Assembly: GCF_006345805.1 (NCBI RefSeq)
Contig: NW_021835990.1
Location: 186,001-250,000, forward strand
Reading direction: 5' to 3'
Source of the DNA: Octopus sinensis
Taxonomy: Eukaryota
DNA: 64,000 nt
The stretch's first letter is position 1; each line of letters starts with the position of its first letter. Of the stretch, positions 19,111 to 59,159 are shown in pieces. The notes under the pieces are model-generated. The model made no database searches. It was not told the origin of the DNA and saw only the letters and a program-made list of their open reading frames with translations. The translations under genes were made by a program, and so were the position numbers.

Positions 19111-19587
19111 GGTCTCTATATGACTGACCACGTAATCCTCTATTCTGATTGACAGGGGGATCCCTCCGTGTCCAAACTCGGCCCTTTGGTGGATGTGGGA
19201 ATGATTTCGTACGCTTATTCGGTCACCCAAGTAGATATTAAAGTGTGTGGTACACATTGGAAAAATATGTGGCGGAAAAATAGTTGAGTACTCAGACTGT
19301 GGAAATTAGAAAGAAAATGGCTGGAGCATGAGGCGTAACAGTCCAACTTTTGAAATGTTCATTTTAGGAGGCCGTTAAATATTTGCCAAGTTGGAAGGCT
19401 CAAGGCTACGATGTGTATATAATTTTTTTCTGAAGAACTTTGAAAGATCAAGAGGTTTAACTTCCTATCCAAGTCTCCAACTGCTTCCAAAGCCCGGATA
19501 ACCTTACAGAAGTCCGGCACCTTCATTCTAAAATTCAGTTCGCCAGAGGATGCTGCTGCGTTCAAAGCAGAGCTGACTCAATCGAAT

Positions 19588-20487
19588 ATGTTTGGCGAAG
19601 GCGGCCATAAACTTGCCTCAATAGCTGAGAAGGCCTCAGTCTTGGTCCTTAAAGGAATCCCTCATTGGATCTCGACAGAGGATCTTAACCTCCACTTGAG
19701 AGAAAGTCTAGAATCGGACTTCAAGTTCGAAAGATTCTCTCGCAATGGAACCGACATGCCTATCGGCAGACTCACGCTGGATTCCAGAGCCGAGGCCAAC
19801 ACCCTCATCCGCTTTGGAATAACTGCGGGCTTCAGCCATATCCGCTGCGAATGGCACAAGCCCTCAGCAACGAGATGCTTCCGTTGCAATCAGTTTGGAC
19901 ATACGTCCTACAGATGCTCCGAAAAACTCCGTTGTCTCCTCTGCGGTAAAGAACACAGGCACCAAAACTGCCCGAGTTCCAAGCCAAAATCGAATGTCCC
20001 AGCTGCAAAAACTTGCATTAATTGCAAGAACACTGGGCACTTGGCGTGCTACGGTGGATGTCCATCTGCCAAAGCAGCAACAGCAGCCTCAAGGGCTGCG
20101 AAGAGCCCACAGACAAAAAGCCCAGTACGCTGGGTGAAAGCCGAACCGATAAAATCAGTCTGGACAAAAGCGGCTCCCCGAAGTCCGTCCAAAGTCGATG
20201 TCTCTACTCAGACGTCGCCGGCCCCCAGCACACTCACAAACTCGAAGACAACCACTAATGAGTGCCATAACTCAGAAGTGGTCCGCTCGGCTGTCCCTCA
20301 TAAGAGGAGAAAAACCCACCGTGACAAAGCTTTGTCACAAAGAGGTCCCCACTCGGATCAGGACCTACACAACAGAGATTCCCAACTGGAATGCTTCCGC
20401 TGTTGTGTAGGAGCCCTGACCCTACTTGGAGTGGATATGGATATGCTGCAAGAGCTCCTGCTAGAAGGGAGCAATTCAGCAACATAG
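19588..20487 (+). mobile_element. Non-LTR retrotransposon ORF1 (gag-like, three CCHC knuckles)
   Basis: CFRCNQFGHTSYRC, CLLCGKEHRHQNC, CINCKNTGHLACYGGC; I/Jockey-type arrangement; no intact ORF2 follows. Confidence 0.85.
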
Positions 20488-22990: not shown

Positions 22991-24424
22991 ATACATAACA
23001 AATTCACTAAAATATTATAAATCAGTCAATTAACAAATTTGAAAAGCTGAACTGTCTGAACTTTAGATATTTCTAACTAAAAATGAGTCTTTATTTCCCG
23101 ACAAAACACCCCCCGAGATCTCCACTTGTGTGCAACCAATCGACCTGATTTTTCCAGGACAACTGCCTCCCTTGATCGTCTATTATATTAATATGTTCAA
23201 CCTCCTCTAAACCTTTTTAGTATCTCAAACTAAGGAACTATGTACGATCTAACTTAAGATGTCAGACTTACAATGTAAATAAGAATTTATTCAAAAAATT
23301 TATTTTTTGTTAAATTTAGTTGATTTTATAATTTTTATATTTCTAAACCCTTGTAGATTTGAGTCTAATTTTTGTTTTGAACACAAAATATGTTTGAAAA
23401 ATAAATTTTCATCAGATCACGATCAAAGAAAGTATTCGTATTAAAACTATTTTATTTATAAACCATTCCAAATAATGTAATTTCAACGTCCAAACAGAAT
23501 GACTCGTTACTTTTCGTGGAGGGAAATCTTTTGTTTAGAATGTGTCATGCTTAGACTTTTTATCAAAATGACTTTTGCTTTCGTCAGTAACTGACTTCAA
23601 AAGGAATTGATGTACGTCCTTTCTTAAAAAATGTGGAAATCATCCCACTTGCGTTCGAGAAAAGAGCTGTCACTGGTGAGAAAGCAGAGGTATTTTTAAA
23701 GGAGGTCGAAAACATGACTTCTAAACGCACATTTGAGAGGAGGGTGACCCACGAGTGTACCAGAGAATCTCAGACACGAGCCCGAAAAGAAAAAAATTGG
23801 CTATTCGCGATTCTAAACTCATGAAATTATATTTGATCGGAGTTAAATTATTAGCGATGGGTGTTAATTTATTATACTTTACATATCTGTAGTAAAAATA
23901 AGACAATAAAATTTTTTATGAAATCAATGTTGGAATTGCATTTTTAAATCTAATTTACTACTTTAGGCTCTAGAATCTATCCACTCCAAAAGCAGGCGTC
24001 CCGACAGGATGAATCATTGTAAATCTTCTTTTTAGACAAAGAGGACGAAATATCTGTGTATTCCGACGCTTTTGAGTATGGTCCCTTGTCTTTGAAACCT
24101 CAGGAATCGTCGACAAGGCCATAACTCAACTCCTCACTGACATTAGTAGGAGAATTTATACATTAAAAATGAAATCATTTTAAAAAAAACACCAGTTCCA
24201 TTCAATTGAAATTAATATTAATAAAACGTACACAAATTTAACTTTAACATAACGTTTTAGGAAAATGAATATCTCCAATAAAATGAATATAAAATTTTTT
24301 TAATGTTTAATTATATAATAAAAACAATAAGTTGTGTGATAATGTCTGTCTTGTATGTCCGTTGTACAGAAATTTTAAAATCTTAAAAAAGGGAAGAGGT
24401 GTAAGATAAAGAAGATGAATTCAA

Positions 24425-27103
24425 ACCTTCAAGAGATAAGCTTAAATAGGATATTCATGAGATAATGAAGGTGATTCGACCTCTTCACGAGATCGGTCCC
24501 TTAGGAACATTAAATCAATAAAGAGCTTAAATAGGATATTTCATGAGATAATGAAGGTGATTCGACCTCTTCACGAGATCGGTCCCTTAGGAACATTAAA
24601 TCAATAAAGAGCTTAAATAGGATATTTCATGAGATAATGAAGGTGATTCGACCTCATGATGAGGTCCCCAAAACCTTCAAGTCAAAAAATTAAAAAAATA
24701 TTCTGCGTTTTTGTTAAAATGAACAACAAGAAAGTCCTCGACTCACATGATGAGGTCCCCAAAACCTTCAAGCCAAAAAATTAAAAAAATTATTTTCAGG
24801 TGATTCGACCTTTCCACGAGATTGGTCCCTTAGGAACATTAAATCAATAAAAAGCTTAAATAGGATATTCATGAGATAATGAAGGTGATTCGACCTTTCC
24901 ACGAGATCGGTCCCTTAGGAACATTAAATCAATAAAAAGCTTAAATAGGATATTCATGAGATAATGAAGGTGATTCGACCTCTTCACGAGATCGGTCCCT
25001 TAGGAACATTAAATCAATAAAGAGCTTAAATAGGATATTTCATGAGATAATGAAGGTGATTCGACCTCATGATGAGGTCCCTTAGGAACATTAAATCAAT
25101 AAAGAGCTTAAATAGGATATTTCATGAGATAATGAAGGTGATTCGACCTCATGATGAGGTCCCCCAAAACCTTCAAGTCAAAAAATTAAAAAAAATTTAT
25201 TTTCTGCGTTTTTGTTAAAATGAACAACAAGAAAGTCCTCGACTCACATGATGAGGTCCCCCAAAACCTTCAAGCCAAAATTAAAAAAAAATTATTTTCA
25301 GGTGATTCGACCTCTTCACGAGATCGGTCCCTTAGGAACATTAAATCAATAAAGAGCTTAAATAGGATATTCATGAGATAATGAAGGTGATTCGACCTCT
25401 TCACGAGATCGGTCCCTTAGGAACATTAAATCAATAAAAAGCTTAAATAGGATATTCATGAGATAATGAAGGTGATTCGACCTCTTCACGAGATCGGTCC
25501 CTTAGGAACATTAAATCAATAAAGAGCTTAAATAGGATATTCATGAGATAATGAAGGTGATTCGACCTCTTCACGAGATCGGTCCCTTAGGAACATTAAA
25601 TCAATAAAAAGCTTAAATAGGATATTCATGAGATAATGAAGGTGATTCGACCTCTTCACGAGATCGGTCCCTTAGGAACATTAAATCAATAAAGAGCTTA
25701 AATAGGATATTTCATGAGATAATGAAGGTGATTCGACCTCTTCACGAGATCGGTCCCTTAGGAACATTAAATCAATAAAGAGCTTAAATAGGATATTTCA
25801 TGAGATAATGAAGGTGATTCGACCTCATGATGAGGTCCCCAAAACCTTCAAGTCAAAAAATTAAAAAAAATTTATTTTCTGCGTTTTTGTTAAATGAACA
25901 ACAAGAAAGTCCTCGACTCACATGATGAGGTCCCCCAAAACTTCAAGCCAAAAAATTAAAAAAAATTATTTTCAGGTGATTAGACCTTTCCACGAGATTG
26001 GTCCCTTAGGAACATTAAATCAATAAAAAGCTTAAATAGGATATTCATGAGATAATGAAGGTGATTCGACCTTTCCACGAGATCGGTCCCTTAGGAACAT
26101 TAAATCAATAAAGAGCTTAAATAGGATATTCATGAGATAATGAAGGTGATTCGACCTCTTCACGAGATCGGTCCTTAGGAACATTAAATCAATAAAGAGC
26201 TTAAATAGGATATTTCATGAGATAATGAAGGTGATTCGACCTCATGATGAGGTCCCCCAAAACCTTCAAGTCAAAAAATTAAAAAAAATTTATTTTCTGC
26301 GTTTTTGTTAAAATGAACAACAAGAAAGTCCTCGACTCACATGATGAGGTCCCCCAAAACCTTCAAGCCAAAAAATTAAAAAAATTATTTTCAGGTGATT
26401 CGACCTTTCCACGAGATTGGTCCCTTAGGAACATTAAATCAATAAAAAGCTTAAATAGGATATTCATGAGATAATGAAGGTGATTCGACCTTTCCACGAG
26501 ATCGGTCCCTTAGGAACATTAAATCAATAAAGAGCTTAAATAGGATATTCATGAGATAATGAAGGTGATTCGACCTCTTCACGAGATCGGTCCCTTAGGA
26601 ACATTAAATCAATAAAGAGCTTAAATAGGATATTTCATGAGATAATGAAGGTGATTCGACCTCATGATGAGGTCCCCCAAAACCTTCAAGTCAAAAAATT
26701 AAAAAAAATTTATTTTCTGCGTTTTTGTTAAAATGAACAACAAGAAAGTCCTCGACTCACATGATGAGGTCCCCCAAAACCTTCAAGCCAAAAAATTAAA
26801 AAAAATTATTTTCAGGTGATTCGACCTTTCCACGAGATTGGTCCCTTAGGAACATTAAATCAATAAAAAGCTTAAATAGGATATTCATGAGATAATGAAG
26901 GTGATTCGACCTTTCCACGAGATCGGTCCTTAGGAACATTAAATCAATAAAGAGCTTAAATAGGATATTCATGAGATAATGAAGGTGATTCGACCTCTTC
27001 ACGAGATCGGTCCCTTAGGAACATTAAATCAATAAAGAGCTTAAATAGGATATTCATGAGATAATGAAGGTGATTCGACCTCTTCACGAGATCGGTCCCT
27101 TAG
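24425..27103 (+). repeat. Satellite array A: 85/86-bp monomers plus a ~165-bp variant, ~421-bp higher-order repeat
   Basis: Monomer GGTGATTCGACCTCTTCACGAGATCGGTCCCTTAGGAACATTAAATCAATAAAGAGCTTAAATAGGATATTCATGAGATAATGAA (anchors 25386, 25471); higher-order anchors 26394 and 26815. Confidence 0.97.
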
Positions 27104-27306
27104 AAAATTATAATTTTTAAAAAGTCAAAAAAGATACTCATAATAATAATAATGTAAATGATTCGACCTTTTCGTTAGATCGGTTCCCTTAAGAAATCAA
27201 AATTTAAAAAAGGAAATTCGTGATTGATTTTTAATGTTTTAAATTAGGAAGTTATTCACCGAACCTAATCTTTCCAAAATTAGAAAGTTTCACGTATAAA
27301 TATCAA

Positions 27307-27410
27307 TCTATATAATAAAACACTAAGTTGTGTGTCTGTCTGTCTGTCCGTGTACACTTATATATCTAAAAAAGGAAATGTGTAAGATAAAGAAGATGAA
27401 TTCAAACTCT
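27307..27410 (+). mobile_element. Helitron-type 5' head
   Basis: A^TCTATATAATAAAACACTAAGTTGTGTGTCTGTCTGTCTGTCC: TC start after A plus (GTCT)n, as in many non-autonomous animal Helitrons. Confidence 0.75.
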
Positions 27411-27411
27411 T

Positions 27412-30400
27412 CAAAGAGATCGGTCCCTTAGGAACATGAAATCAATAAAGAGGTTAAATATGATGAGATAATGAAGGTGATTCGACCTCTTCACGAGATC
27501 GGTCCTTAGGAACATGAAAGAAATAATAAAGAGCTTAAAAAAGATATTCATGAGATAATGAAGGTGATTTGACCTCATGATGAGGTCCCCCAAAACCTTC
27601 AAGCCAAAAAATTTAAAAAAAATTATTTTCTGCGTTTTTGTTAAAATGAACAACAAGAAAGTCCTCGACTCACATGATGAGGTCCCCAAACCTTCAAGCC
27701 AAAAAATAAAAAAAAATTATTTTCAGGTGATTCGACCTCTTCACGAGATCGGTCCCTTAGGAACATTAAATCAATAAAGAGCTTAAATAGGATATTCATG
27801 AGATAATGAAGGTGATTCGACCTCTTCACGAGATCGGTCCCTTAGGAACATTAAATCAATAAAAAGCTTAAATAGGATTCATGAGATAATGAAGGTGATT
27901 CGACCTCTTCACGAGATCGGTCCTTAGGAACATAAATCAATAAAGAGCTTAAATAGGATATTTCATGAGGATAAATGAAGGTGATTCGACCTCATGATGA
28001 GGTCCCCAAAAACCTTCAAGTCAAAAAATTAAAAAAAAATTTATTTTTCTGCGTTTTTGTTAAAATGAACAACAAGAAAGTCCTCGGACTCACATGATGA
28101 GGTCCCCCCCAAAACCTTCAAGCCAAACAAAATTAAAAAAAATTAGGTTTCAGGTGATTCGAACCTCTTCACGAGATCGGTCCCTTAGGAACATTAAATC
28201 AATAAAAGCTTAAATAGGATATTCATGAGATGATAATGAAGGTGTGATTCGACTCTTCACGAGATCGGCCCTTAGGAACATTAAATCAATAAAAAGCTTA
28301 AATAGGATATTCATGAGATAATGAAGGTGATTCGACCTTTCACGAGATCGGTCCCTTAGGAACATTAAATCAATAAAGAGCTTAAATAGGATATTCATGA
28401 GATAATGAAGTGATTCGACCTCTTCACGAGATCGGTCCCTTAGGAACATTAAATCAATAAAGAGCTTAAATAAATTAGGATATTTCATGAGATGATAATG
28501 AAGGTGATTCGACCTCATGGATGAGGTCCCCCAAAACTTCAAGTCAAAAAATAAAAAAAATTTATTTCTGCGTTTTTGTTAAAAATGAACAACAAGAAAG
28601 TCCTCGACTCACATGATGAGGGTCCCCCAAAACCTTCAAGCCAAAAAATTAAAAAAAATTATTTTCAGTGATTAGACCTTTCCACGAGATTGGTCCTTAG
28701 GAACATTAAATCAATAAAAGCTTAAATAGGATATTCATGAGAGATAATGAAGGTGATTCGACCTTTCCACGAGATCGGTCCCTTAGGAACATTAAATCAA
28801 TAAAAAGCTTAAATAGGATATTCATGAGATAATGAAGGTGATTCGACCTCTTCACGAGATCGGTCCCTTAGGAACATTAAATCAATAAAGAGCTTTAATA
28901 GGATATTTCATGAGATAATGAAGGTGATTCGACCTCATGATGAGGTCCCCAAAACCTTCAAGTCAAAAAATTAAAAAAAATTTATTTTCTGCGTTTTTGT
29001 TAAAATGAACAACAAGAAAGTCCTCGACTCACATGATGAGGTCCCCCAAAACCTTCAAGCCAAAAAATTAAAAAAAATTATTTTCAGGTGATTCGACCCT
29101 TCCACGAGATTGGTCCCTTAGGAACATTAAATCAATAAAAGCTTAAATAGGATATTCATGAGATAATGAAGGTGATTCGACCTTTCACGAGATCGGTCCC
29201 TTAGGAACATTTTAAATCAATAAAAAGCTTAAATAGGATATTCATGAGATAATGAAGGTGATTCGACCTTTCACGAGATCGGTCCCTTAGGAACATTAAA
29301 TCAATAAAAAGCTTAAATAGGATATTCATGAGATAATGAAGGTGATTCGACCTTTCCACGAGATCGGTCCCTTAGGAACATTAAATCAATAAAGAGCTTA
29401 AATAGGATATTCATGAGATAATGAAGGTGATTTGACCTCATGATGAGGTCCCCCAAAACCTTCAAGCCAAAAAATTAAAAAAAATTATTTTCAGGTGATT
29501 CGACCTTTCCACGAGATTGGTCCCTTAGGAACATTAAATCAATAAAAAGCTTAAATAGGATATTCATGAGATAATGAAGGTGATTCGACCTTTCCACGAG
29601 ATTGGTCCCTTAGGAACATTAAATCAATAAAGAGCTTAAATAGGATATTCATGAGATAATGAAGGTGATTCGACCTCTTCACGAGATCGGTCCCTTAGGA
29701 ACATTAAATCAATAAAGAGCTTAAATAGGATATTCATGAGATAATGAAGGTGATTCGACCTCTTCACGAGATCGGTCCCTTAGGAACATTAAATCAATAA
29801 AGAGCTTAAATAGGATATTTCATGAGATAATGAAGGTGATTCGACCTCATGATGAGGTCCCCCAAAACCTTCAAGTCAAAAATTAAAAAAAATTTTCTGC
29901 GTTTATTTTCTGCGTTTTTGTTAAAATGAACAACAAGAAAGTCCTCGACTCACATGATGAGGTCCCCCAAAACCTTCAAGCCAAAAAATTAAAAAAATTA
30001 TTTTCAGGTGATTCGACCTCTTCACGAGATCGGTCCCTTTGGAACATTAAATCAATAAAGAGCTTAAATAGGATATTCATGAGATAATGAAGGTGATTCG
30101 ACCTCTTCACGAGATCGGTCCCTTAGGAACATGAAATCAATAAAAAGCTTAAATAGGATATTCATGAGATAATGAAGGTGATTCGACCTCTTCACGAGAT
30201 CGGTCCCTTAGGAACATTAAATCAATAAAGAGCTTAAATAGGATATTTCATGAGATAATGAAGGTGATTCGACCTCTCACGAGATCGGTCCCTTAGGAAC
30301 ATTAAATCAATAAAGAGCTTAAATAGGATATTTCATGAGATAATGAAGGTGATTCGACCTCATGATGAGGTCCCCCAAAACCTTCAAGTCAAAAAATTAA

Positions 30401-31135
30401 AAAAAATTTATTTTCTGCGTTTTTGTTAAATGAACAACAAGAAAGTCCTCGACTCACATGATGAGGTCCCCCAAAACCTTCAAGCCAAAAAATTAAAAAA
30501 AATTATTTTCAGGTGATTCGACCTTTCCACGAGATTGGTCCCTTAGGAACATTAAATCAATAAAAAGCTTAAATAGGATATTCATGAGATAATGAAGGTG
30601 ATTCGACCTTTCCACGAGATCGGTCCCTTAGGAACATTAAATCAATAAAGAGCTTAAATAGGATATTCATGAGATAATGAAGGTGATTCGACCTCTTCAC
30701 GAGATCGGTCCCTTAGGAACATTAAATCAATAAAGAGCTTAAATAGGATATTTCATGAGATAATGAAGGTGATTCGACCTCATGATGAGGTCCCCCAAAA
30801 CCTTCAAAAAATTAAAAAAAATTTATTTTCTGCGTTTTTGTTAAAATGAACAACAAGAAAGTCCTCGACTCACATGATGAGGTCCCCCAAAACCTTCAAG
30901 CCAAAAAATTAAAAAAAATTATTTTCAGGTGATTCGACCTTTCCACGAGATTGGTCCCTTAGGAACATTAAATCAATAAAAAGCTTAAATAGGATATTCA
31001 TGAGATAATGAAGGTGATTCGACCTTTCCACGAGATCGGTCCCTTAGGAACATTAAATCAATAAAGAGCTTAAATAGGAAATATTCATGAGATAATGAAG
31101 GTGATTCGACCTCTTCACGAGATCGGTCCCTTAGA
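27412..31135 (+). repeat. Satellite array B, same monomers as array A
   Basis: Same 85-bp and ~165-bp units, followed by the same ~200-bp tail ending CACGTATAAATATCAA as at 27104-27306. Confidence 0.97.
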
Positions 31136-31852
31136 AATTATAAATTTTTAAAAAAGTCAAAAAGATTATCATAATAATAATAATGTAAATGATTCGACCT
31201 TTTCGTTAGATCGGTTCCCTTAAGAAATCAAAATTTAAAAAGGAAATTCGTGATTGATTTTTAATGTTTTAAATTAGGAAGTTATTCACCGAACCTAATC
31301 TTTCCAAAATTAGAAAGTTTCACGTATAAATATCAATCTGAAATAAAATCCTACTTCCAGGCTAACTATTTTCATTGCTATCTGTGCGCGCATGCAAAAT
31401 TAAGTAATGGTAATTAGTTAACAATTGTGCAAATTTGAATTTTCAACATTACTCATTATAGATATCCACAAAAATAAATACCTCTCCCCCTTAACAGAAC
31501 TTCAAACGATCAAAAATTTAACAATAACTAACGTTTTGTCAATAAATTACTTTTTAACAATATTTCATTATTGAGGATGCTATCAGAGGATTAACTCTAT
31601 TTCCCTTGAGATATAGAAGATATTAGTTGTTAATTATAGATTGTTTCATTTGTAAGATGTTTAAATCAAAAGTGTTTGTAGAATCTGCCAACAACATCGC
31701 AAGTCGAAACTACAGTCACCAAATTCACTTTGAAATTGTTAATTAATCTTAATAAATTAAATGGATATACGGTCGTATTTATGTGAATTCTCAATCATCT
31801 ATATAATTATGAAATAAATAGATTATAAATTTGAAGTAGATAGTTTCAAACA

Positions 31853-34255
31853 GTGGATAACAGGTGGGTAGTGCCTTATAGTCCACTGTTATGTAAAATT
31901 TTTAATGCTCATATAAATGTAGAATTCTGCAACTCAATTAAATCAATTAAATATGTCTGCAAATACATCAACAAGGGGTCAGATCAGGCAGTTTTTACTA
32001 TTGAAGGACGGGATGAGGTGACTCAATACATGCATGGGAGATATATTTGCAGCAGTGAGGCTGCGTGGAAAATATTTGGATTTCCCATACATGATAGATA
32101 TCCTTTGGTAATGCATTTAGAGGTACATTTGGAAAATGGACAAAGAGTTTACTTCAATGAAGAAAATGTACAAGACCAAATACAAAACCCAAGGAATTCT
32201 ACACTAATGGCTTTTTTTGAACTTTGTACATTAGACACATTTGCAAAAACATTATTATATTGTGAAATTCCAAGATACTACAGGTGGGAAACTACCGGTA
32301 AGAAATTCAAACGAAGGATAAGAGGAGAACCAGTGAATGGACATCCAGGAATTGTAAGTAGTGATGCATTGGGCAGGGTGTACACAGTTCACCCTAATAA
32401 TGCCGAATGTTATTGTGTTAGGTTACTTCTGCATAACATCCGAGGACCGACATTTTTTACCGATTTAAAGACAGTTGATGGAGTAATCTGCGCAACATTT
32501 AGAGAAGCCTGTTTTAAATTGGGACTTTTAGAGGATGATAAAAGCTGGGACGACGCATTGACCGAAGCTGGGATTTTCAATATGCCATCAAAGATTAGAT
32601 ATTTATTTACATTGATGTTGGCATATTGTAATATATCAAATCCTCTACAACTGTGGGAGAAGCATAAAGAAATAATGTGTGAAGATATATTAAAGAGGGA
32701 TGCAAAATCAGGTTTTGACGAGGACATTTTTAATGAAGGATTACTAATTATTAATAGATCACTCGAATCAGTCATTGGGAAAAATATATGTGAGTACGGG
32801 TTTAGCGTTAACAGTCAAAATATTACAAATAATTTGGAATATGACAAATATAATTTAGAAGAACTACAAAAAATACTTAATGAAAGGGAACCGAATTTAT
32901 TGGAAGGTCAATTAAGAATCTACAATGAAATAAACAGAAAGATTGAAGAAAATGATGGTAAAATATTCTTCATAGATGCACCGGGAGGTACAGGTAAAAC
33001 ATATCTATTAAATTTATTATTGGCAAAGGCGAGATGCAATAATAAAATAGCTATAGCAGTTGCTTCTACAGGTATTGCGGCTACGCTTTTAGATGGTGGA
33101 CGAACAGCACATTCAATGTTCAAACTACCATTAAATCTAGCAAAGGATATGGAGCCAGTTTGTAATATTAAAGGAAATTCACTTATTGGGACTATTATAC
33201 GTGATTGTAATCTAATAGTATGGGATGAGTGTACAATGGTAAGTAAAAGAGCATTTGAAGCAGTTGACAGAACTTTTCGCGACATCAAACATTCAGATTC
33301 ACCTTTTGGTGGATCGGTGTTAGTATTAGCAGGTGATTTTAGACAGACACTGCCTATTATTCAAAGAGGAACACCAGCAGATGAACTTAATGCATGTTTG
33401 AAATCATCGTATTTGTGGACCTTGGTAAAAAAAATAAGTCTAAATGTAAATATTCGTGCACAAAAGTCAGAAACAAATTCATTCGCTAAGGTACTTTTAA
33501 ATGTAGGGAATGGAACACTCGAAACAAATTCAGAAGATTTTAAGGTATCACTACCTCCAGAGTTATGCATAAATGTAAACAGACCAGAAGAATTATTAAC
33601 CTCAGTTTATCCAAATCTAGAGGAAAATTACACATGCTTTGACTGGCTTAGGGAAAGAGCAATACTAGCACCACTAAATGACGAAGTACATAATATTAAT
33701 TTAGATTTGCTCATTAAATTACCAGGAATGGAACGTATTTATAAATCTGTAGATGTAATTATGGATCAAGAAACAGCATGTGAATATCCTGTGGAATTTC
33801 TAAATTCTTTAGAACCGTCAGGGATGCCTCATCATACTTTAAAATTAAAGGTAGGAGCGCCAGTTGTTCTATTACGAAATCTAGAATCTCCAAGGTTATG
33901 TAATGGTACAAGATTAGTAATAACAAATTTAATGTCTAATATTATAGAAGCAACGATATTAACGGGGAAAAATAAAGGAGAAGATGTTTATATTCCAAAA
34001 ATTCCAATAATTTCGGATGAATTACCATTTAGATTTAAGAGACTACAATTTCCATTGAAGTTGAGTTTCGCAATGACAATCAACAAATCACAGGGACAAA
34101 CCCTTAAAGTAGTAGGTTTATTTTTAGCAAGTGAATGTTTTTCACATGGACAATTGTATGTAGGTTGTTCTAGGGTAGGTGAACGAGAAAACCTATTCAT
34201 ATACACCAAAGATTGTCGTACAAGCAATATAGTGTATCAACAAGCATTACAATAA
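31853..34255 (+). CDS. Helitron RepHel C-terminal part: Rep motif 3 plus PIF1 helicase
   Basis: DNRWVVPY, KSIKYVCKYINKG (catalytic tyrosines), DAPGGTGKT, VWDEC, GDFRQTLP, AMTINKSQGQT, HGQLYVGCSRV. In-frame TAG at 31841 upstream; no HUH motif; no ATG at the ORF start. Confidence 0.93.
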   Translation: MDNRWVVPYSPLLCKIFNAHINVEFCNSIKSIKYVCKYINKGSDQAVFTIEGRDEVTQYMHGRYICSSEAAWKIFGFPIHDRYPLVMHLEVHLENGQRVYFNEENVQDQIQNPRNSTLMAFFELCTLDTFAKTLLYCEIPRYYRWETTGKKFKRRIRGEPVNGHPGIVSSDALGRVYTVHPNNAECYCVRLLLHNIRGPTFFTDLKTVDGVICATFREACFKLGLLEDDKSWDDALTEAGIFNMPSKIRYLFTLMLAYCNISNPLQLWEKHKEIMCEDILKRDAKSGFDEDIFNEGLLIINRSLESVIGKNICEYGFSVNSQNITNNLEYDKYNLEELQKILNEREPNLLEGQLRIYNEINRKIEENDGKIFFIDAPGGTGKTYLLNLLLAKARCNNKIAIAVASTGIAATLLDGGRTAHSMFKLPLNLAKDMEPVCNIKGNSLIGTIIRDCNLIVWDECTMVSKRAFEAVDRTFRDIKHSDSPFGGSVLVLAGDFRQTLPIIQRGTPADELNACLKSSYLWTLVKKISLNVNIRAQKSETNSFAKVLLNVGNGTLETNSEDFKVSLPPELCINVNRPEELLTSVYPNLEENYTCFDWLRERAILAPLNDEVHNINLDLLIKLPGMERIYKSVDVIMDQETACEYPVEFLNSLEPSGMPHHTLKLKVGAPVVLLRNLESPRLCNGTRLVITNLMSNIIEATILTGKNKGEDVYIPKIPIISDELPFRFKRLQFPLKLSFAMTINKSQGQTLKVVGLFLASECFSHGQLYVGCSRVGERENLFIYTKDCRTSNIVYQQALQ

Positions 34256-34260
34256 TAAGA

Positions 34261-34565
34261 TCTATATAATATTTGATAATTTTTATACTATAACAATCAA
34301 TTTTTTATTATATAGACGAGTGCTTTTCACATGGCCAGCTGTATGTGGGATGCTCAAGGGTAGGTAGAAGAGAAAATTTATATTTGCCAAGGATGGACGG
34401 ACTGCAAACATCGTTTATCCACAGGCCTTAGAATAAGGTTATATCAAAGCAGGTCGCATTTATATATCTAAATAAATTTATAGTTATTTAAGGAAACTGC
34501 GAGCGTAGCGAGCAGGGCCTCCGCAGGAGCTAGCTCGCAGTGAGCAAAGCGAACTGCTGAGCTAG
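34261..34565 (+). mobile_element. Mini-Helitron forming the 3' end of unit B1 (copy at 37491-37795)
   Basis: A^TCTATATAAT head; a diverged second copy of helicase motif VI (ECFSHGQLYVGCSRVGRRENL...NIVYPQALE*); two hairpin+CTAG termini (CTAG at 34530 and 34562). Confidence 0.75.
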
Positions 34566-37500
34566 TCTGAAATAAAATCCTACTTCCAGGCTAACTATTT
34601 TCATTGCTATCTGTGCGCGCATGCAAAATTAAGTAATGGTAATTAGTTAACAATTGTGCAAATTTGAATTTTCAACATTACTCATTATAGATATCCACAA
34701 AAATAAATACCTCTCCCCCTTAACAGAACTTCAAACGATCAAAAATTTAACAATAACTAACGTTTTTGTCAATAAATTACTTTTTAACAATATTTCATTA
34801 TTGAGGATGCTATCAGAGGATTAACTCTATTTCCCTTGAGATATAGAAGATATTAGTTGTTAATTATAGATTGTTTCATTTGTAAGATGTTTAAATCAAA
34901 AGTGTTTGTAGAATCTGCCAACAACATCGCAAGTCGAAACTACAGTCACCAAATTCACTTTGAAATTGTTAATTAATCTTAATAAATTAAATGGATATAC
35001 GGTCGTATTTATGTGAATTCTCAATCATCTATATAATTATGAAATAAATAGATTATAAATTTGAAGTAGATAGTTTCAAACAGTGGATAACAGGTGGGTA
35101 GTGCCTTATAGTCCACTGTTATGTAAAATTTTTAATGCTCATATAAATGTAGAATTCTGCAACTCAATTAAATCAATTAAATATGTCTGCAAATACATCA
35201 ACAAGGGGTCAGATCAGGCAGTTTTTACTATTGAAGGACGGGATGAGGTGACTCAATACATGCATGGGAGATATATTTGCAGCAGTGAGGCTGCGTGGAA
35301 AATATTTGGATTTCCCATACATGATAGATATCCTTTGGTAATGCATTTAGAGGTACATTTGGAAAATGGACAAAGAGTTTACTTCAATGAAGAAAATGTA
35401 CAAGACCAAATACAAAACCCAAGGAATTCTACACTAATGGCTTTTTTTGAACTTTGTACATTAGACACATTTGCAAAAACATTATTATATTGTGAAATTC
35501 CAAGATACTACAGGTGGGAAACTACCGGTAAGAAATTCAAACGAAGGATAAGAGGAGAACCAGTGAATGGACATCCAGGAATTGTAAGTAGTGATGCATT
35601 GGGCAGGGTGTACACAGTTCACCCTAATAATGCCGAATGTTATTGTGTTAGGTTACTTCTGCATAACATCCGAGGACCGACATTTTTTACCGATTTAAAG
35701 ACAGTTGATGGAGTAATCTGCGCAACATTTAGAGAAGCCTGTTTTAAATTGGGACTTTTAGAGGATGATAAAAGCTGGGACGACGCATTGACCGAAGCTG
35801 GGATTTTCAATATGCCATCAAAGATTAGATATTTATTTACATTGATGTTGGCATATTGTAATATATCAAATCCTCTACAACTGTGGGAGAAGCATAAAGA
35901 AATAATGTGTGAAGATATATTAAAGAGGGATGCAAAATCAGGTTTTGACGAGGACATTTTTAATGAAGGATTACTAATTATTAATAGATCACTCGAATCA
36001 GTCATTGGGAAAAATATATGTGAGTACGGGTTTAGCGTTAACAGTCAAAATATTACAAATAATTTGGAATATGACAAATATAATTTAGAAGAACTACAAA
36101 AAATACTTAATGAAAGGGAACCGAATTTATTGGAAGGTCAATTAAGAATCTACAATGAAATAAACAGAAAGATTGAAGAAAATGATGGTAAAATATTCTT
36201 CATAGATGCACCGGGAGGTACAGGTAAAACATATCTATTAAATTTATTATTGGCAAAGGCGAGATGCAATAATAAAATAGCTATAGCAGTTGCTTCTACA
36301 GGTATTGCGGCTACGCTTTTAGATGGTGGACGAACAGCACATTCAATGTTCAAACTACCATTAAATCTAGCAAAGGATATGGAGCCAGTTTGTAATATTA
36401 AAGGAAATTCACTTATTGGGACTATTATACGTGATTGTAATCTAATAGTATGGGATGAGTGTACAATGGTAAGTAAAAGAGCATTTGAAGCAGTTGACAG
36501 AACTTTTCGCGACATCAAACATTCAGATTCACCTTTTGGTGGATCGGTGTTAGTATTAGCAGGTGATTTTAGACAGACACTGCCTATTATTCAAAGAGGA
36601 ACACCAGCAGATGAACTTAATGCATGTTTGAAATCATCGTATTTGTGGACCTTGGTAAAAAAAATAAGTCTAAATGTAAATATTCGTGCACAAAAGTCAG
36701 AAACAAATTCATTCGCTAAGGTACTTTTAAATGTAGGGAATGGAACACTCGAAACAAATTCAGAAGATTTTAAGGTATCACTACCTCCAGAGTTATGCAT
36801 AAATGTAAACAGACCAGAAGAATTATTAACCTCAGTTTATCCAAATCTAGAGGAAAATTACACATGCTTTGACTGGCTTAGGGAAAGAGCAATACTAGCA
36901 CCACTAAATGACGAAGTACATAATATTAATTTAGATTTGCTCATTAAATTACCAGGAATGGAACGTATTTATAAATCTGTAGATGTAATTATGGATCAAG
37001 AAACAGCATGTGAATATCCTGTGGAATTTCTAAATTCTTTAGAACCGTCAGGGATGCCTCATCATACTTTAAAATTAAAGGTAGGAGCGCCAGTTGTTCT
37101 ATTACGAAATCTAGAATCTCCAAGGTTATGTAATGGTACAAGATTAGTAATAACAAATTTAATGTCTAATATTATAGAAGCAACGATATTAACGGGGAAA
37201 AATAAAGGAGAAGATGTTTATATTCCAAAAATTCCAATAATTTCGGATGAATTACCATTTAGATTTAAGAGACTACAATTTCCATTGAAGTTGAGTTTCG
37301 CAATGACAATCAACAAATCACAGGGACAAACCCTTAAAGTAGTAGGTTTATTTTTAGCAAGTGAATGTTTTTCACATGGACAATTGTATGTAGGTTGTTC
37401 TAGGGTAGGTGAACGAGAAAACCTATTCATATACACCAAAGATTGTCGTACAAGCAATATAGTGTATCAACAAGCATTACAATAATAAGATCTATATAAT

Positions 37501-37795
37501 ATTTGATAATTTTTATACTATAACAATCAATTTTTTATTATATAGACGAGTGCTTTTCACATGGCCAGCTGTATGTGGGATGCTCAAGGGTAGGTAGAAG
37601 AGAAAATTTATATTTGCCAAGGATGGACGGACTGCAAACATCGTTTATCCACAGGCCTTAGAATAAGGTTATATCAAAGCAGGTCGCATTTATATATCTA
37701 AATAAATTTATAGTTATTTAAGGAAACTGCGAGCGTAGCGAGCAGGGCCTCCGCAGGAGCTAGCTCGCAGTGAGCAAAGCGAACTGCTGAGCTAG
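34566..37795 (+). mobile_element. Helitron unit B2, head-to-tail copy of B1
   Basis: CTAG|TCTGAAAT junction at 34565/34566. The only difference noticed is one extra T in a homopolymer near 34765. Ends CTAG^T. Confidence 0.93.
35083..37485 (+). CDS. Second copy of the Helitron Rep motif 3/PIF1 helicase ORF
   Basis: 800-aa translation identical to 31853..34255. Confidence 0.93.
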   Translation: MDNRWVVPYSPLLCKIFNAHINVEFCNSIKSIKYVCKYINKGSDQAVFTIEGRDEVTQYMHGRYICSSEAAWKIFGFPIHDRYPLVMHLEVHLENGQRVYFNEENVQDQIQNPRNSTLMAFFELCTLDTFAKTLLYCEIPRYYRWETTGKKFKRRIRGEPVNGHPGIVSSDALGRVYTVHPNNAECYCVRLLLHNIRGPTFFTDLKTVDGVICATFREACFKLGLLEDDKSWDDALTEAGIFNMPSKIRYLFTLMLAYCNISNPLQLWEKHKEIMCEDILKRDAKSGFDEDIFNEGLLIINRSLESVIGKNICEYGFSVNSQNITNNLEYDKYNLEELQKILNEREPNLLEGQLRIYNEINRKIEENDGKIFFIDAPGGTGKTYLLNLLLAKARCNNKIAIAVASTGIAATLLDGGRTAHSMFKLPLNLAKDMEPVCNIKGNSLIGTIIRDCNLIVWDECTMVSKRAFEAVDRTFRDIKHSDSPFGGSVLVLAGDFRQTLPIIQRGTPADELNACLKSSYLWTLVKKISLNVNIRAQKSETNSFAKVLLNVGNGTLETNSEDFKVSLPPELCINVNRPEELLTSVYPNLEENYTCFDWLRERAILAPLNDEVHNINLDLLIKLPGMERIYKSVDVIMDQETACEYPVEFLNSLEPSGMPHHTLKLKVGAPVVLLRNLESPRLCNGTRLVITNLMSNIIEATILTGKNKGEDVYIPKIPIISDELPFRFKRLQFPLKLSFAMTINKSQGQTLKVVGLFLASECFSHGQLYVGCSRVGERENLFIYTKDCRTSNIVYQQALQ

Positions 37796-37929
37796 TAACA
37801 CATAAGAATCAACGTTGGAAAAAAGCAACATAACAAAACATCGAGTGAAACTCGCTAAAGAAATAATTGGATATTTTTATTTGTTTAAAAAAATTAATCT
37901 AATATTTGATTATTTATTATATGGCTGGA

Positions 37930-39060
37930 TTTCGGGGATTCTGCGAGTTATTAAAACAAAGAAATGGCATTTGGCTACAATCGCAGGATTTCTTACCTCT
38001 AAATACGCTATTGCTGACACAGAAAGCATAGATATTAATTTTCTCAAAGACATTCAGAAAAAATATTTGCTAAACAAAATAAAGTCCAAGTCACTACACT
38101 CTGTTATGTTCAAATGCCTGGATGAATCAAATGTCGATCTTTCTACTTCCTCAGAATGGTTAGCCAAAGGAAATAATGGCCCCCGAAGTGAAGCATTATA
38201 CTGCCTTCTGCAAGATAGAAATTTGTTTTTTGCAAACACGAGGCCGTTATGCAATCACTGTAAAAAAAGTAAACAAACTGTTGATCATCTGGCCACTCAG
38301 TGTGGTAAAATGCTCAATAGCGATTACCTCCGAAGACATGACGAGGTGGTTAAATGTGTCCATCTTCATATTTGTCGAATGTATGGAATCAAAAAGAGCA
38401 GGAAATTAAAGACTCATTCAGTTCAGTCGATATTGTCAACTCAAAATGTAGAAATTAGAGTTGACACGTCAATTATAACAGAAAATAAAGTCAACTTCAA
38501 TAAACCGGATATCTTTGTTTATGACAAGATTAAAAAGGAAATAACCTTAATCGAGGTGGGCATAACATCTCAGGACCGCTTAAAACAAGTGGAAGTTGAG
38601 AAACTTCACAAATATGATTTCCTTGCAAATGAACTATCACTACTCTACGAATGCCAAGTTAAAATTATTCCCGTGGTTCTGACCTGGGATGGTGTTGTCA
38701 CAAGATGCTTCAAAAATTATATGGATAAACTATATATTGAAAAATCTACAATGACATACATCCAATCGGTTGTGCTCAAAAGGACGCTAGAGAGCATGAT
38801 AATTGAACACAAGCATGGAATGAAGATAACTGGCGAGGAATATGCCTCTGCGACCGATCAACTAGTAGAAATGGCATGCCACCAGGACACTCCATTCAAA
38901 GATAAAAGACGCACAAAAACTGACGCAGAGATAGAGAATGAAGAGGAACAAGCAGCAGACTCTTCTCCTAAAAGGAGAAGAGAGACTACCAATCGGGATT
39001 GAAAGTCCTATTTAAATATTTTAACCTTAATTAAATTTTGGTTTCGTAAATAAACTTCTT
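37930..39060 (+). mobile_element. 3' part of an R4/Dong-like non-LTR element (CCHC + restriction-like endonuclease)
   Basis: CNHCKKSKQTVDHLATQC, LRRHDEVVK, KPDIFVYDK, LIEVGIT, KLHKY in ORF 37815..39002. Confidence 0.88.
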
Positions 39061-40149
39061 GGCTGGATTTCTGAAGAACTTTTAAAATAAAAGCTGAAAA
39101 ATCTATGCTCTCGACCCACTCCTTTGCCAGCCTTGAACACCTCTTAACATCCGCCAATTTAGCGATTGGTTTAATGTTGTCTTATTGATTTCCAGAGGAT
39201 CCCTCTTGGATGACGAATCCGCCATGTGTCTCAAAATGGGTTACACTTGTTTTCCTCGTTGCAAGAAAAAAACTTTGCTAACCATTTGAGCTTTTGGAAA
39301 ATTTCGATACAGTTAAATTTACTTTTATCTTTATGAATGAATTTAATTCTTGCCTACTCATTATTCACATCATTGTAAATCTTCCACGATTATTTAATTT
39401 CGTATGTCACAGTGTCCGGTTCCTTGATATTGTCCGGCCTGATTAATTTAATTTTATTTAAGAAACAATCTATCAAACATGGCCATTTTTCAGAAAGAGT
39501 ATTAACAAATACAGTTAAATGAATAAAATATGGTCCCACTTGTCTGATTTTTGTTCACGCAGTGATCCAAATTGAATGTAAAATAACAGAACAATTTTGA
39601 AAAATTGCTTATTTTAAATTAGGTATTTCAATTTCCCTTTCAGTATTTCAAATTACTCACTGTGTAGTTCATTCGTGCGTATTCACGAATGGGTCCCAAT
39701 TCACAATATATTTAGATATTCTATATAATGGTTACGAAACCACAATAGTGAAGTGTAGGCTGGCCACCTTCCCACTGCAGAGTTTTTTGTTAACCGAAAA
39801 AAGTGTGAAAATAGATGCACAGCAATTTTACATGGAAAAAATTATATATGCTGAGCACAGAGATTTGGGTTTTGGACAAATAATCTTTTTGATTGTTAAT
39901 CTCGAATTGGCATTTTAATTCTGGAATGAGCAGCTTTTGTTTAGAATAAAGAGTTTTCAAATAATTATTTCTCACAGTCCTGTCAAACAGAGATTCTCTT
40001 AATAGGCCCTCCATCAAAGCATATTTATAATGGGACGAATATATTGTCGTGGGAATCGTATAGTGGTGAATGATTTTTTGAAATAGAACAATTATTCTTA
40101 GTATGTTAGATATTAAAAGAATTTGTGTTGGAATGACATTCTTTCTCTA

Positions 40150-40434: not shown

Positions 40435-40680
40435 CCTTCGATAAAAGGTTGATGGACAACTCTGGAATCGCAAAGTGGATTGTTAACTTTGTTAAATCAT
40501 TGGTGGGAAGATGGACTGTGCATCTAAAGCTGAATACTCGTGCCATTCGTAAAGTGAAATTGGGAAGAGGCATATTGCAAGGGGATAGTTTGTCTCCATT
40601 ATTGTTTGTGTTGGTGATGGACCCCTTGAGTAGAGGTTTAAATCTCAAGTTTCCCACAATATCTGTCAAAACAAGAATGA
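40435..40680 (+). mobile_element. R4-like RT fragment
   Basis: RGILQGDSLSPLLFVLVMDPLSR. Confidence 0.8.
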
Positions 40681-40839
40681 TAATGAGATTAAAAATTAAC
40701 ATTTTTCACTGTAAAATTTACAGCAATTGAATCAAATTTTAATATAGATATAACATACAAAAAAATAAAGTCGATAAATTATAAAATATCAATAAAAATC
40801 AATGTATATAATAGAAAGGGAAACATATCATTTAAAAAA

Positions 40840-41130
40840 GATGCATTCAATTGAAATTAAATTATTAAAAATGTACACATTAACTTGTAAAATAACTTTT
40901 CTCAAGATATTCTACATGTACCCAATATTTAATCTTCAATAAAATGCATATACAAAATTATATTTAAAAAAATGTTGAATGACAAATAATAATCAACTGT
41001 CGAAAATAGAACACGCTGATGATAATAATTATTTAAAAAATATCTAAAGAAATTATCTAAAGAAATAATATTTATAGAAAATATATAAGTTAAAGTTCGG
41101 TCATTGATTATATATCTTAATTTCAAAAAA
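40840..41130 (+). repeat. AT-rich dispersed repeat (empty-site paralog of the Helitron target)
   Basis: Shares CATTCAATTGAAATTAA...AATGTTGAATGACAAATAATAATCAAC...ATAATATTTATAGAAAATATATAAGTTAAAGTTC with 24190-24310 + 37796-37920 and with 43960-44160. Confidence 0.7.
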
Positions 41131-41979
41131 ATTTTAAAATAAAAACTAAAAAATCTAGGTTCGAATTAATCTGGTCTATCAGCCTTGATCACTGCTTGCC
41201 TGCCCTATTTTGGCAATTGGCTTTGTGCTGTTCCTTTGATCTACGCCGGATCTTTTTTTGATAACAAATCCGCCAGATCACGATTTGACTCCCTGTGTGT
41301 CTTTAAATAAGTCAGCCTTATTTTTTTCGTTGCGTGAAAGTTATCCACTATAAGAAACTTTACCTTCTCTTTAGCAAACTGATTGTGCGTAGATTACTTT
41401 GTTACTCCTTACGACATTGTCAGAGAAACCTTGATTCGATAGCTTTTGTTCTATTCTACAGCCTGTGGGTCTCGATCATGGAACTGGACGACGCTTTTTC
41501 ATTTCGAAAAAGCCAATGTAATGCCTGCGATATCACCCGGAGATTTTTTGTGACTTATTAATAAAATTAATTTACCTCCATGGAAATGTGTATCCTGTGG
41601 AATAAATGGAGGATTTTTTCTGCTTCAGACAATTTATTCAGTCGTTTAAAGAAAATCTATGAATATGTGAATAAAACTGATAATTATTATCTATAAATAA
41701 TGATTTTATGACTTTTCGGATTAATTAATCTGTTTCGATTTTTTGGACAAAACCTCAGCTTTTGGAACACTTAGTGCTCGAAATCCAAGTGTATTAATTC
41801 AAATCCGAGACGTTTTATAAATGACCCTTAACCTAACCAAGTGACATTATTAAAAAGCCTAATTTATGATCTTAGCCAATAGCTGTTTGATCAGATTAAT
41901 TAGTGGAGTACAAGAAGAGAGACCAATCTGACTAATCCCTATGGTCTACCTTGTAAAGTTATTACAACAAATTAGTCAC

Positions 41980-43460
41980 ATTATCCCGAACAGTTTCGTC
42001 CCAATCCTACCATTGACATATTGGCTCAACCTCATCCACCGAGTAAGGAGAAAACACATACTCCTCCCACGATTAATGTGGATTAATGCTATACACGTGC
42101 TAAGCACAGTCGCCAACTGAAAACTCACTCGCTGTAGTTCACGCTTGTTTAAATCGACTTGATCAGTACAAGCAAACAATTAAATTTATGGGGCAATAAT
42201 TCATTTTGTTGGTCCTCACACACCCACTCGTAGTGGCCAAGTGTCTTGATTGTTGGGTCACGTACTTTGGACAGCAAATACTTTTTTACTGAACGCAGTT
42301 GTTGACAGTAGTCGCTCATTTCTTGTCGTAATTTCCTCAATTGTGCACGAAACTTGTGTCATACTTTATTGTGTGTGTAATCAAATGGAAAAGACCACCT
42401 GTAAGGATATCCCCGCTGTAAGTTAGTTGAGAATAGTCGTCCTTTAATGAAGCCAGTAATGCCTCCAAGAACAACCACAGTTCTCGGTAATCATTGGCCT
42501 GAATAGAGCACGACTGTTGCCCTAATTCATTGACATAACAGAAATACTCCATGAGATGGAGACTGTCTGTCCACTGGGGAATCTCAGTGTGGTTTTAGGG
42601 GATGTATCCTCGATTATTTGGAATACTTTTTATAAAGCCATCCAAATCAAGTATTTTGGCCGACTTGAAAGTGACTTTGAGATATCCTTCGAACGTGTCG
42701 GGCATGTCAGAAAGCATCATATGCAAAGGAAAATGAAATCTTTTGCAAGTCGACTGCCAGTGTGGAAGGTAGGTCTGTCCAATCTTTACTAAACTCGACC
42801 ACAAAAGTTTAATTATTGGCTATTTTAGTCTCATTAAATTTCCACTAATGAAGGGCACTCTGATATTCTTTTGGGAACTCTCAATCGAGGACCTGAGAAG
42901 GATCCGGACATTGTCAACTTGCATGTTTGTGGAGACAAGACACTGGAGATTTAGTCAACAAAAAATACTTCCAGACATATCCGACTTTCCCTCTAAACAT
43001 ATATTTCCATACAAACGTGAAATGTGTCTGTCACTTGAGATTCGGCAGAACGACCTTGGAGGATTGATCTTGTTTGATTTCCTTGCTGAGTGTGCGTAGT
43101 TCCTGTCTGGTCTGCTCGTGACTGAGATCTCTGGTCAGAAGAGTCGTCGATATCGTGGAAGGATCGATCCCGAAGTAGAAAGATTCGGGGAACCCATCCT
43201 CTCATAAAATAGAGACAAGTCCGCGTTGGTTTCTACAACCAGTTAATAAAAGAAACTACTCGGAAGGCTTGTAACAATTTAAATGGCGGAAAAATCGGTT
43301 CGACACGACCAAAAAACTTCCCTTCCCTTGTAAGCTCGAATGGAGGACTGAGCCATCTCCATAAAAATTCCCGGCTTCTCCTCGGACTCTGCGATTAACT
43401 GGGATTCTTACTCCACGTGTGGACAAGGAAACAGAAGTCGTGGTCTCGAAGTTTGTCATT
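41980..43460 (-). pseudogene. Unidentified degraded or multi-exon coding region
   Basis: Chain of consecutive minus-strand ORFs (42149-42340, 42337-42552, 42595-42804 and others) with protein-like composition; no family recognised. Confidence 0.3.
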
Positions 43461-43959
43461 TTATTTATTTATTGACCAAAGACCCGAGTAAGCCAGTTAA
43501 TTATAATCCCCTGTGATCCCCGATTCATGTCAATGAAGTAGATTTTTCTGAAAGATTCGAGCCTGCCCACAATGATCGGACTGAGAAGACCATGTCCCAG
43601 GGTCAGAGTTCTAGAAGTTCTTTTTTTGGTAGTTAATTAAAAAATAATAATATTTAGCGCTTTTTTGGAAAGGAAGATATTTATGTAAATGGAAGCTGTA
43701 AGTTATGGTTAGATAAAGTCACAGGAGATGATTGACTAATTAGTGCTTTTGATGATCGACTGATTTATAGTCCTAAATGTGCTTTTCTGGCTTACTGTCA
43801 CGTCTAGGAAAGGCGGGGCAATCCTCCAAAATACCACCCACCGAATAGAGGAACTGTAGCTATACAAACCTGTCTTCCGTCTTTTTCCATATAAAATAAA
43901 TTTATTTAATTTTGTTTTTTTAGTGGTGAAACGTATGCTTGAATAGACTAATTATAAAG

Positions 43960-44160
43960 CAATAAGAATATTCAAAATTATATTTAAAAAAAATGTTTAA
44001 TAACAAATAATAATAAACTGTCAAAAATAGCTGATGAAAATAATAATCGATGAAATAGTGATTCAATATTTATACTTTTTAATTATTAAAAAAATAATAT
44101 TTATAGAAAATATATAAGTTAAAGTTCAATTATTGATTATATAACTTAATTTCAGAAAAA
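43960..44160 (+). repeat. AT-rich dispersed repeat, copy
   Basis: Matches 40940-41130; contains uninterrupted AATGTTTAA|TAACAAATAATAATAAAC. Confidence 0.7.
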
Positions 44161-45119
44161 CTTTTACTGAATATGTACTATTTTAATACATTACCTTTTT
44201 TCCCCCCTACAAATCACATCTCCTTATACCGATCCGTTTCTGGTAAAGCTGTTTGAGTACATCAGTGAAATAGTCACCACAAGAGACTATCATCAATAAA
44301 CTGTTTCTTGGAACGGCTGTGTGGAAAGGTTTGCGTAGACAATAATTAGAGGTTTTCATTAACAAAAATAAGTGTACTTGCCCATGTCAAGTCTAACCTG
44401 TTCGAAATAATTTTATTTAAAAAATAGTTTGTGGGCGTCCAGAGTATTGACACGCCGGAGAATGGACACTGCTTAGAACACAAAATCGGCAAATGAAATA
44501 TTGCTTTTATTTCAGAACGTTTTTATTACGTCGGACTACTTCATACCGATCATGGAAGAGAATTTAGTAATGTTCTTATGACTAAAAGTTGCGATAAATA
44601 CAACATTTGTCATATTTTTGGAAAACCACGCATGCAGCCACAAATTTTGATGCTTATGGACAAGGTAGGGGATTAATACTAGTAAAGGGCCAATTCATAA
44701 GCAAGAATTGAACTAAAACGGAATTAAATATTTATTCCACTACTAATAGGCTAAAAAAGTAAACTGACAAGGGTCAGGCAAATTTTTGTGTTGTGATAGA
44801 CATCAAAAGAATAGTCACCAAATATTACACGGGCTACATAAGCCAGTCAACTGCTACAGCTCTTTAAATTGATTAGGCATATTTTTACAATTAATCACAT
44901 TTTTCTTTCCAAAAAGATGGGAATTCTATAGAGGGGATGTATACCCCATTAACTACTTTTTTGAATTCTCTGCACAGATGACCATAAAGCGAATAAAACC
45001 TTCTAATATGTTGTAAACTTTATTACAACGTTGTCATTTTAGACTCTAAATGACAACTACTTTTCTAAAGTTTATTTTTTACACTATCACTACATAGACT
45101 ATCAATATTTTAAATACGA

Positions 45120-51365: not shown

Positions 51366-51409
51366 TCAAGTTTATATAGATAAAACGACCCGGTTTGATG
51401 TAAACTTAT

Positions 51410-51700
51410 TCTAACGCCCGCTGATAAAAAATGTTTGTCGTCCGTCCTTCCACGACATATATGAATAAATTTTCTCTTCTGCCTACCCTTGAGCATCCCA
51501 CATACAGCTATTCATGTGAAAACCATTTGCACTCTTATAAACCTTTAATGACTGTCCCTGAGACTTGTTTTATTGTCATTGCAAAACTCATTTTTAAAGA
51601 AAATTGCAGCTTCAATCTAAACGGTAATTAATCAGAAATAATTGGCAGGATCTAAAATCACCTGCCAATACAACCATTACCCCCAAACAGCAGTTCGTTA
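51410..51700 (-). pseudogene. Helitron helicase fragment
   Basis: LQFSLKMSFAMTIKQ, FSHE*LYVGCSRVGRRENLFIY. Confidence 0.75.
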
Positions 51701-59153: not shown

Positions 59154-59159
59154 GAATAA

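Follow-up and report, generated by a model that had tools for sequence, protein, structure and literature searches.

The insertion and its host site

We analysed a 64,000-nucleotide window of the Octopus sinensis assembly (GCF_006345805.1, contig NW_021835990.1, positions 186,001 to 250,000 of the forward strand; positions below are those of the window). At 24311-37795 the window contains a 13,485-bp insertion, which by its sequence is canonical Helitron family (Helitron1) DNA. Such elements start with TC, end with CTRR, enter A^T targets without duplication, have a 16-20-bp hairpin 10-15 bp before the 3' end and encode RepHel. An initial annotation of the window had taken the insertion for one composite Helitron. 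In our interpretation, to which we give a probability of roughly 0.8, it is a nested self-insertion. Specifically, a Rep-deleted, satellite-bearing copy (27307-34565) would lie inside an internal A^T of an identical copy, with the pair in one host A^T.

The insertion is real in the assembly, and its boundaries are confirmed. The left host flank, ...AATGTTTAA, stops at 24310 with the A of the target. The right flank, TAACACATAAGAATCAAC, begins at 37796 directly after GAGCTAG, with the T of the target and ATAA at +7 (37796-37806), and both ends carry exactly the letters quoted in the initial annotation. Searching the same assembly, we found two contigs in which the A of 24310 adjoins the T of 37796 exactly and without duplication: C2932 (11867|11868; left flank 93%, right flank 99%) and C12597 (172651|172652; 83% and 93%). 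Because the flanks adjoin base to base in both contigs, the 13,485 bp occupy one A^T site without duplication, as had been proposed. C2932 is collinear with window 15197-39726, mostly at 97-99%, which probably makes it the other haplotype or else a duplicate of recent origin.

The empty site had also been read from two diverged paralogs in the window, at 40971-40997 and 43992-44018 (both + strand), and the letters quoted for these uninterrupted copies are correct. When the joined flanks were aligned to them, the first paralog matched (40801-41013; 68% over 225 columns, E 5e-12). The second matched at 80% over 40 columns, and its left half failed the shuffle test (score 48, shuffle mean 56). 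By alignment the in-window paralogs are old, and as evidence for the empty site they are weak, no more than moderately convincing. Comparison of window 40676-47433 with C12597 shows that the host flank is part of a segmentally repeated block, present several times across the window and C12597 (83-96%).

The insertion is arranged in the order A A B B, with all parts on the + strand. A consists of head, satellite and tail (24311-27306 and 27307-31336), while B (31337-34565 and 34566-37795) comprises a spacer of 514 bp, then a helicase frame and the CTAG end. The first A (2996 bp) is the 5' part of the outer copy and has the same order of parts as the monomer at other loci. It starts with a head that reads TT and is ~80% like the family heads (24311-24437), continues with satellite block 1 (24439-27110), in which 85-bp units are mixed with 95-bp units common to a sister family, and terminates with a tail ending in TATCAA. 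The inner copy (27307-34565, 7259 bp) is complete from TC to CTAG and lies between the A of 27306 and the T of 34566. Its satellite block 2 spans 27366-31134. Both blocks were delimited with Tandem Repeats Finder and by unit order, supplemented by alignment of the 95-bp units for block 1 and by the monomer layout for block 2. Each of the two copies thus has one satellite block, of 2672 and 3769 bp, and the total of 6441 bp bears out the earlier statement that about 6.4 kb of satellite DNA is carried inside Helitron DNA.

Downstream of block 2, the inner copy retains an intact internal site, TATCAA^TCTGAAATAAAA (31331-31348), which comparison with genome matches identifies as the empty form of the self-insertion site. 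A 2.76-kb deletion, which removes the N-terminal and HUH Rep region, is joined at 31849-31850. The truncated RepHel frame (31844-34255, 803 codons stop to stop) has a YxxKY motif and a Pif1 helicase (PF05970, E 9.8e-64, plus PF21530) and no HUH motif. The inner 3' end (34316-34565, ~250 bp), which ends in CTAG, is 97-98% common with the high-copy sister family, from which the family likely acquired its present 3' end. A helicase C-terminal motif is doubled (34133-34255 and 34318-34436, 71.5% identity), with the second copy inside this shared 250-bp end.

The 3' remainder of the outer copy (34566-37795) resumes at the T of the interrupted internal site, bringing the outer copy to 6226 bp. It contains the second deletion junction (35079-35080) and a second truncated RepHel frame with an identical translation (35074-37485). 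The two helicase units (3229 and 3230 bp) differ by a single indel, at which a sequencing-run contig has the letter of the second unit; the two B units are therefore probably identical at the sequence level. CTAG is present at 34562-34565 and 37792-37795, in agreement with the CTRR end that had been anticipated. The TC start that had been expected at 24311 is found at the second head, at 27307, and in most other family heads. A stem-loop with a bulged 12-bp stem that includes the final CTAG is predicted at 37760-37795. Folding of the last 40 nt gives -11.6 kcal/mol (z -3.07; 3 of 200 shuffles equally good), and folding of 80 nt gives a different hairpin, ending 24 nt upstream of the 3' end.

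Probable nested copies and the family monomer

Two new junctions mark the proposed nesting. The A|A junction reads TATCAA|TCTATATAAT and the B|B junction reads GAGCTAG|TCTGAAATAAAA, and both lie at the same internal A^T (TATCAA^TCTG). Both show canonical chemistry, namely A|TC and CTAG|T. TATCAA (27301-27306) and TCTGAAATAAAA (from 34566) are contiguous at 31331-31348 and at other loci, and removal of the inner copy restores the outer copy. The monomer is uninterrupted across the internal site at C9497, C10643, C10326 and C12462. Among nine genome matches to the segment starting at the internal T, eight are preceded by the tail and the ninth is 34566 itself; none represents an element that begins at the internal TC next to foreign sequence. 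As the tail precedes eight of the nine, we also dropped the notion that the 3.2-kb unit might be an independent Helitron starting at a TC of its own.

Eight further loci with the family head were examined, giving nine with the window; counts from these DNA searches of the animal's own genome are lower bounds. Elsewhere the monomer contains head, satellite, tail, spacer, a further 2.7-2.8 kb, helicase and CTAG; C9497 and C10643 have all of it, the other loci only part. The extra 2.7-2.8 kb encodes, at C10643, a Rep region with the HUH motif (PF14214, E 2e-55). The family thus combines an HUH Rep with Pif1, as expected of RepHel, and the window copies retain only PIF1 and YxxKY. We considered that the 2.76 kb present elsewhere might be a foreign insertion, and rejected this because it encodes a Rep domain in frame with the helicase.

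A pattern spanning the deletion junction, with one mismatch allowed, has two matches in the assembly, both in the window. Neither window copy has the complete Rep domain of an autonomous Helitron. Because both carry the same 2.76-kb Rep deletion, seen only here, the window copies can be classed from their sequence as non-autonomous and were likely copied from each other. This is a young family: window B has zero substitutions, apart from indels, against C10643, C9497, C10326 and C12462, and one against C12636. The assembly contains six exact family 3' ends, two of them in the window.

Other family loci also contain repeated heads. The order is A A B at C10643 and A A A B at C12462, with one 3' end each and separate breakpoints; the expectation that these two loci would be nested with repeated 3' parts was not borne out. 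An internal head junction occurs in three of the nine family-head loci, at three different places. By our arithmetic, random targeting of <0.1 Mb in 2,719 Mb would give far fewer. At G000:C8318:98966-102485 (L064) there is a chimera, in which a family head and 85-bp satellite are joined to a sister-family helicase part and 3' end.

In the mechanism that we propose, one canonical integration at the internal A^T would create both junctions, with transposase supplied in trans by a full-length family member. The inner copy would derive from the outer one or from an immediate common donor. The deletion is private to the window copies, which ties them to one donor. Targeting would have been in cis, either at the donor itself or from one circle to another, and not a random hit. 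Nesting may have occurred at the host site or on a circle that was later integrated once; the sequence fits either course, and the pair may have arrived here in one step or in two. A A B daughters would then be expected from copying that starts at the outer head and stops at the first CTAG, and A B B daughters from copying that starts at the inner head and runs past the first CTAG.

Target-site motif, sister family and rival explanations

The 3' flanks define a positioned target motif. Among 55 distinct non-self 3' flanks, every one begins with T; the start of ATAA is at +7 in 25 of them and at +8 in another 12. The 5' flanks of the sister family end in A in 20 of 23 cases. The motif was chosen after viewing a first flank set, from which four rows (the window's two and two head-to-tail) were left out; ATAA is present in 20/26 flanks of this set and in 28/764 background A^T sites. 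In a later set, which includes one self-junction, it is present in 17/25 (background 19/558). In the pooled set, from which three self or head-to-tail flanks of 58 were dropped, ATAA occurs at +6 to +8 in 39/55 flanks, compared with 8.0 ± 2.5 (maximum 17) in 5000 shuffles of each flank's own bases. The internal site and the host site of the window both have ATAA at +7. Within the inner copy, 27 of 817 A^T sites have ATAA at +6 to +8, the self-insertion site among them; by weight matrix this site ranks 15 of 817, and the C12462 site ranks 1. The picture is complicated by the low weight-matrix score of the host site (-0.23), by ATAA lying at +6 and +9 in the heads and by two sister self-junctions without the motif.

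The sister family, with 123 exact 3' ends, has its last 250 bp in common with this family at 97-98%. Of 30 sister heads examined, six follow internal element sequence and one follows CTAG. Three loci share site 2817^2818: C7512 and C9497 with the order A A B, and C1302 with A B B. From their layout, these forms fit the daughters expected of a nested locus, yet they also fit separate half-events. Further A A B and A A A B forms of the sister family, at site 3772^3773 near the 3' end, are present at G000:C8907:146112-154207 and C10663:9001-19000. At G000:C8845:305454-308722 and at three places in C8694, two or three sister heads are joined at position 318 after C, not A; the identity of this junction at several loci suggests one event that spread. 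Five sister copies lie head to tail at G000:C9004:180322-197180 (L117-L120), with CTAG|TC junctions and 95-bp arrays of differing length.

Several observations weigh against nested self-insertion. Contigs from three sequencing runs of one sample, aligned to 31130-34565, show neither the junctions nor the deletion and do not exclude the junctions either; one run contained 0.57 of the words and the two others next to none, and only contigs were used. The main run contig follows the full-length form at 31849. We counted these run data as evidence for neither side. The outer head begins with TT and is ~20% diverged, whereas the 3' units differ from other loci by no more than one substitution. The adjoining flank is also noisy, with 24 differences from C2932 over 24100-24310, where C2932 and C12597 differ from each other at ~4 places; the divergence of the head is for this reason likely to be poor consensus. 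The satellite blocks differ in length and unit order, as do the three modules of C12462, so the inner copy is no letter-for-letter copy, and the unit order does not reveal the direction of copying between the two window copies. A second complete A A B B locus was not found; C1302, which lacks an upstream A part, had been predicted to be a full A A B B and turned out to be A B B. Two other self-junctions, at sister sites 3772 and 318, have no motif or no A^T, and the C10643 junction is too noisy to place.

The main rival to nested self-insertion, which we consider improbable, is two separate duplications at one hot site. In this scenario the transposase joins the 5' end intramolecularly to the internal A, an A circle and a B circle are released, and rolling or homologous recombination returns each of them to the donor. 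The A A B and A B B forms that each occur alone at one shared sister-family site speak for it, and so does the resemblance of the internal TCTGAAATAAAA to a head; moreover, the repetition of the same junction in A A A B forms (C12462, C10663) requires amplification beyond one insertion. However, A A B and A B B are also expected as daughters of a nested locus, and no free-standing B unit is present among the nine matches. The scenario also needs two reintegrations into the same copy, whereas one insertion is enough for nested self-insertion.

A noisy long-read assembler might have built A A B B out of a monomer or by merging two alleles, but we regard this as very unlikely. Each window junction is seen once and was not seen in the run contigs examined; the quality of the consensus drops at 24100-24440, and parts of block 2 are noisy. 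However, misjoins inside shared repeats would be expected to give A B A B or an altered array length, not two transposase-type junctions at one A^T, and the same kinds of junction recur at one base on independent contigs. Finally, the original proposal of a single 13.5-kb rolling-circle element, moving with two satellite blocks and two helicase units as regular parts, is right in that the whole, with all four parts, has a single 5' end and a single 3' end and occupies one A^T site, but as an elementary unit it is largely refuted, since the insertion resolves into two copies of a 6-9-kb monomer, its layout is absent at the other family loci (with four exact 3' ends beyond the window's two), the intact CTAG at 34565 would normally stop copying and both helicase frames are without the Rep motif.

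Nested self-insertion, if correct, could be extended to the clade, and this extension is doubtful. In it, the clade reads a positioned motif (A^T with ATAA at +7/+8), probably through the surface that binds its own 5' end, and prefers to integrate into itself in cis; self-insertion would be the main source of elements with several heads, of repeated 3' parts and of satellite blocks several kilobases long, and the locus would preserve a nested intermediate so far mostly inferred. ATAA in the heads stands at +6 and +9, out of the target register by one base, and their matrix scores are low (0.36 and -0.79), which counts against this extension.

Known Helitrons and neighbouring elements

Helentron/DINE-1 (Helitron2) elements have a TT target, subterminal inverted repeats and no CTRR end. 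The insertion differs from them in its A^T target and CTAG end; subterminal inverted repeats were not searched for. Drosophila DINE-TR1 is reportedly a satellite-bearing Helitron/Helentron, and a model cited in a paper on Crassostrea gigas is said to explain arrays of 3'-truncated copies. Satellites inside Helitrons, and tandem arrays, are described in the available text on C. gigas (PMC8268682) and on Xenopus Heli2Xen (PMC12001565). Like those described there, the present elements have a 5' box, a (TGTC)n microsatellite and a variable satellite array. Unlike those, which are mostly short, non-autonomous and often Helitron2/Helentron, they are of Helitron1 type, with arrays of 0.6-3.8 kb that precede the RepHel gene and mix two unit types.

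Helitron1 and Helraiser/Helibat1, as covered in the accessible text (PMC4778049), have in common with this family a TC start (here in the inner copy), a CTAG end, A^T targets without duplication, RepHel with Pif1 and an AT-rich bias strongest on the 3' side, as well as head-to-tail CTAG|TC junctions, found here in the sister family (C9004). Circles are also described for Helraiser. An A^T preference is also described in wheat (PMC13286980, available portion). Unlike Helitron1/Helraiser, the window copies have no HUH Rep part, the predicted stem-loop would reach the last bases rather than lie 10-15 bp upstream, and what is a general bias in the 3' flank there narrows here to an ATAA motif at a set position. 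In addition, self-targeting is frequent here, whereas the Helraiser text describes no local hopping among 701 events.

For FoHeli of Fusarium oxysporum, the portion of the paper available to us (PMC5148889) proposes that multiple 5' termini arise when an element inserts into itself and a later round of copying starts at the outer 5' end and stops at the first 3' end, and it describes one nested case. We propose the same route. FoHelis are non-canonical, and their duplicated 5' parts are typically <200 bp, in contrast to 0.3-4 kb here. Further differences are that the two nested copies here have a private deletion in common and that a single site shows both the A A B and the A B B form. In the literature consulted, mainly open-access text without the figure logos or supplements where a motif may be visible, neither a positioned ATAA target motif nor a nested Helitron pair with a shared private deletion is reported.

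Both ideas, self-insertion and Helitrons that carry satellites, are already in print. What the locus adds is a clean case and a sharper target motif; it does not establish a new kind of element. The usual explanation of multi-headed Helitrons invokes a nested intermediate, which is rarely seen intact. On our interpretation the locus provides one, for which both the host site and the internal site are known in empty form and in which a private deletion links the copies; both predicted daughter forms are in the same genome. The positioned ATAA motif and the high rate of self-targeting bear on how the Helitron transposase chooses its targets, and the locus illustrates one route by which satellite arrays may double in a single step.

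The rest of the window contains other repeats. Next to the right flank, 37934-39071 is a ~1.1-kb insertion with a 12-bp target duplication, TGGCTGGATTTC (37922-37933 and 39060-39071); it is absent from C2932 and C12597, has at least 19 further near-identical copies and contains a frame, without a Pfam match, that we take to be the endonuclease end of a non-LTR (long terminal repeat) retrotransposon. A Tc5/DDE_1-type transposon (47482-49149; PF03184, PF03221) has a 99.9-100% identical copy at a different position in C2932 and was therefore recently active. Diverged Helitron helicase and 3' relics (75-81%) are on the minus strand at 51371-51645 and 55898-56113. We assume that the frame at 19444-20487, which has no Pfam match, encodes a gag-type zinc-knuckle protein, and those at 57004-59202 (minus strand), 61085-61977 and 62347-62709 (minus strand) are presumably a reverse transcriptase, a Tc1-type transposase and a dynein heavy-chain exon, respectively. 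A tandem pair of 266-bp units with 90% identity (13661-14198) lies inside a 213-codon minus-strand frame.

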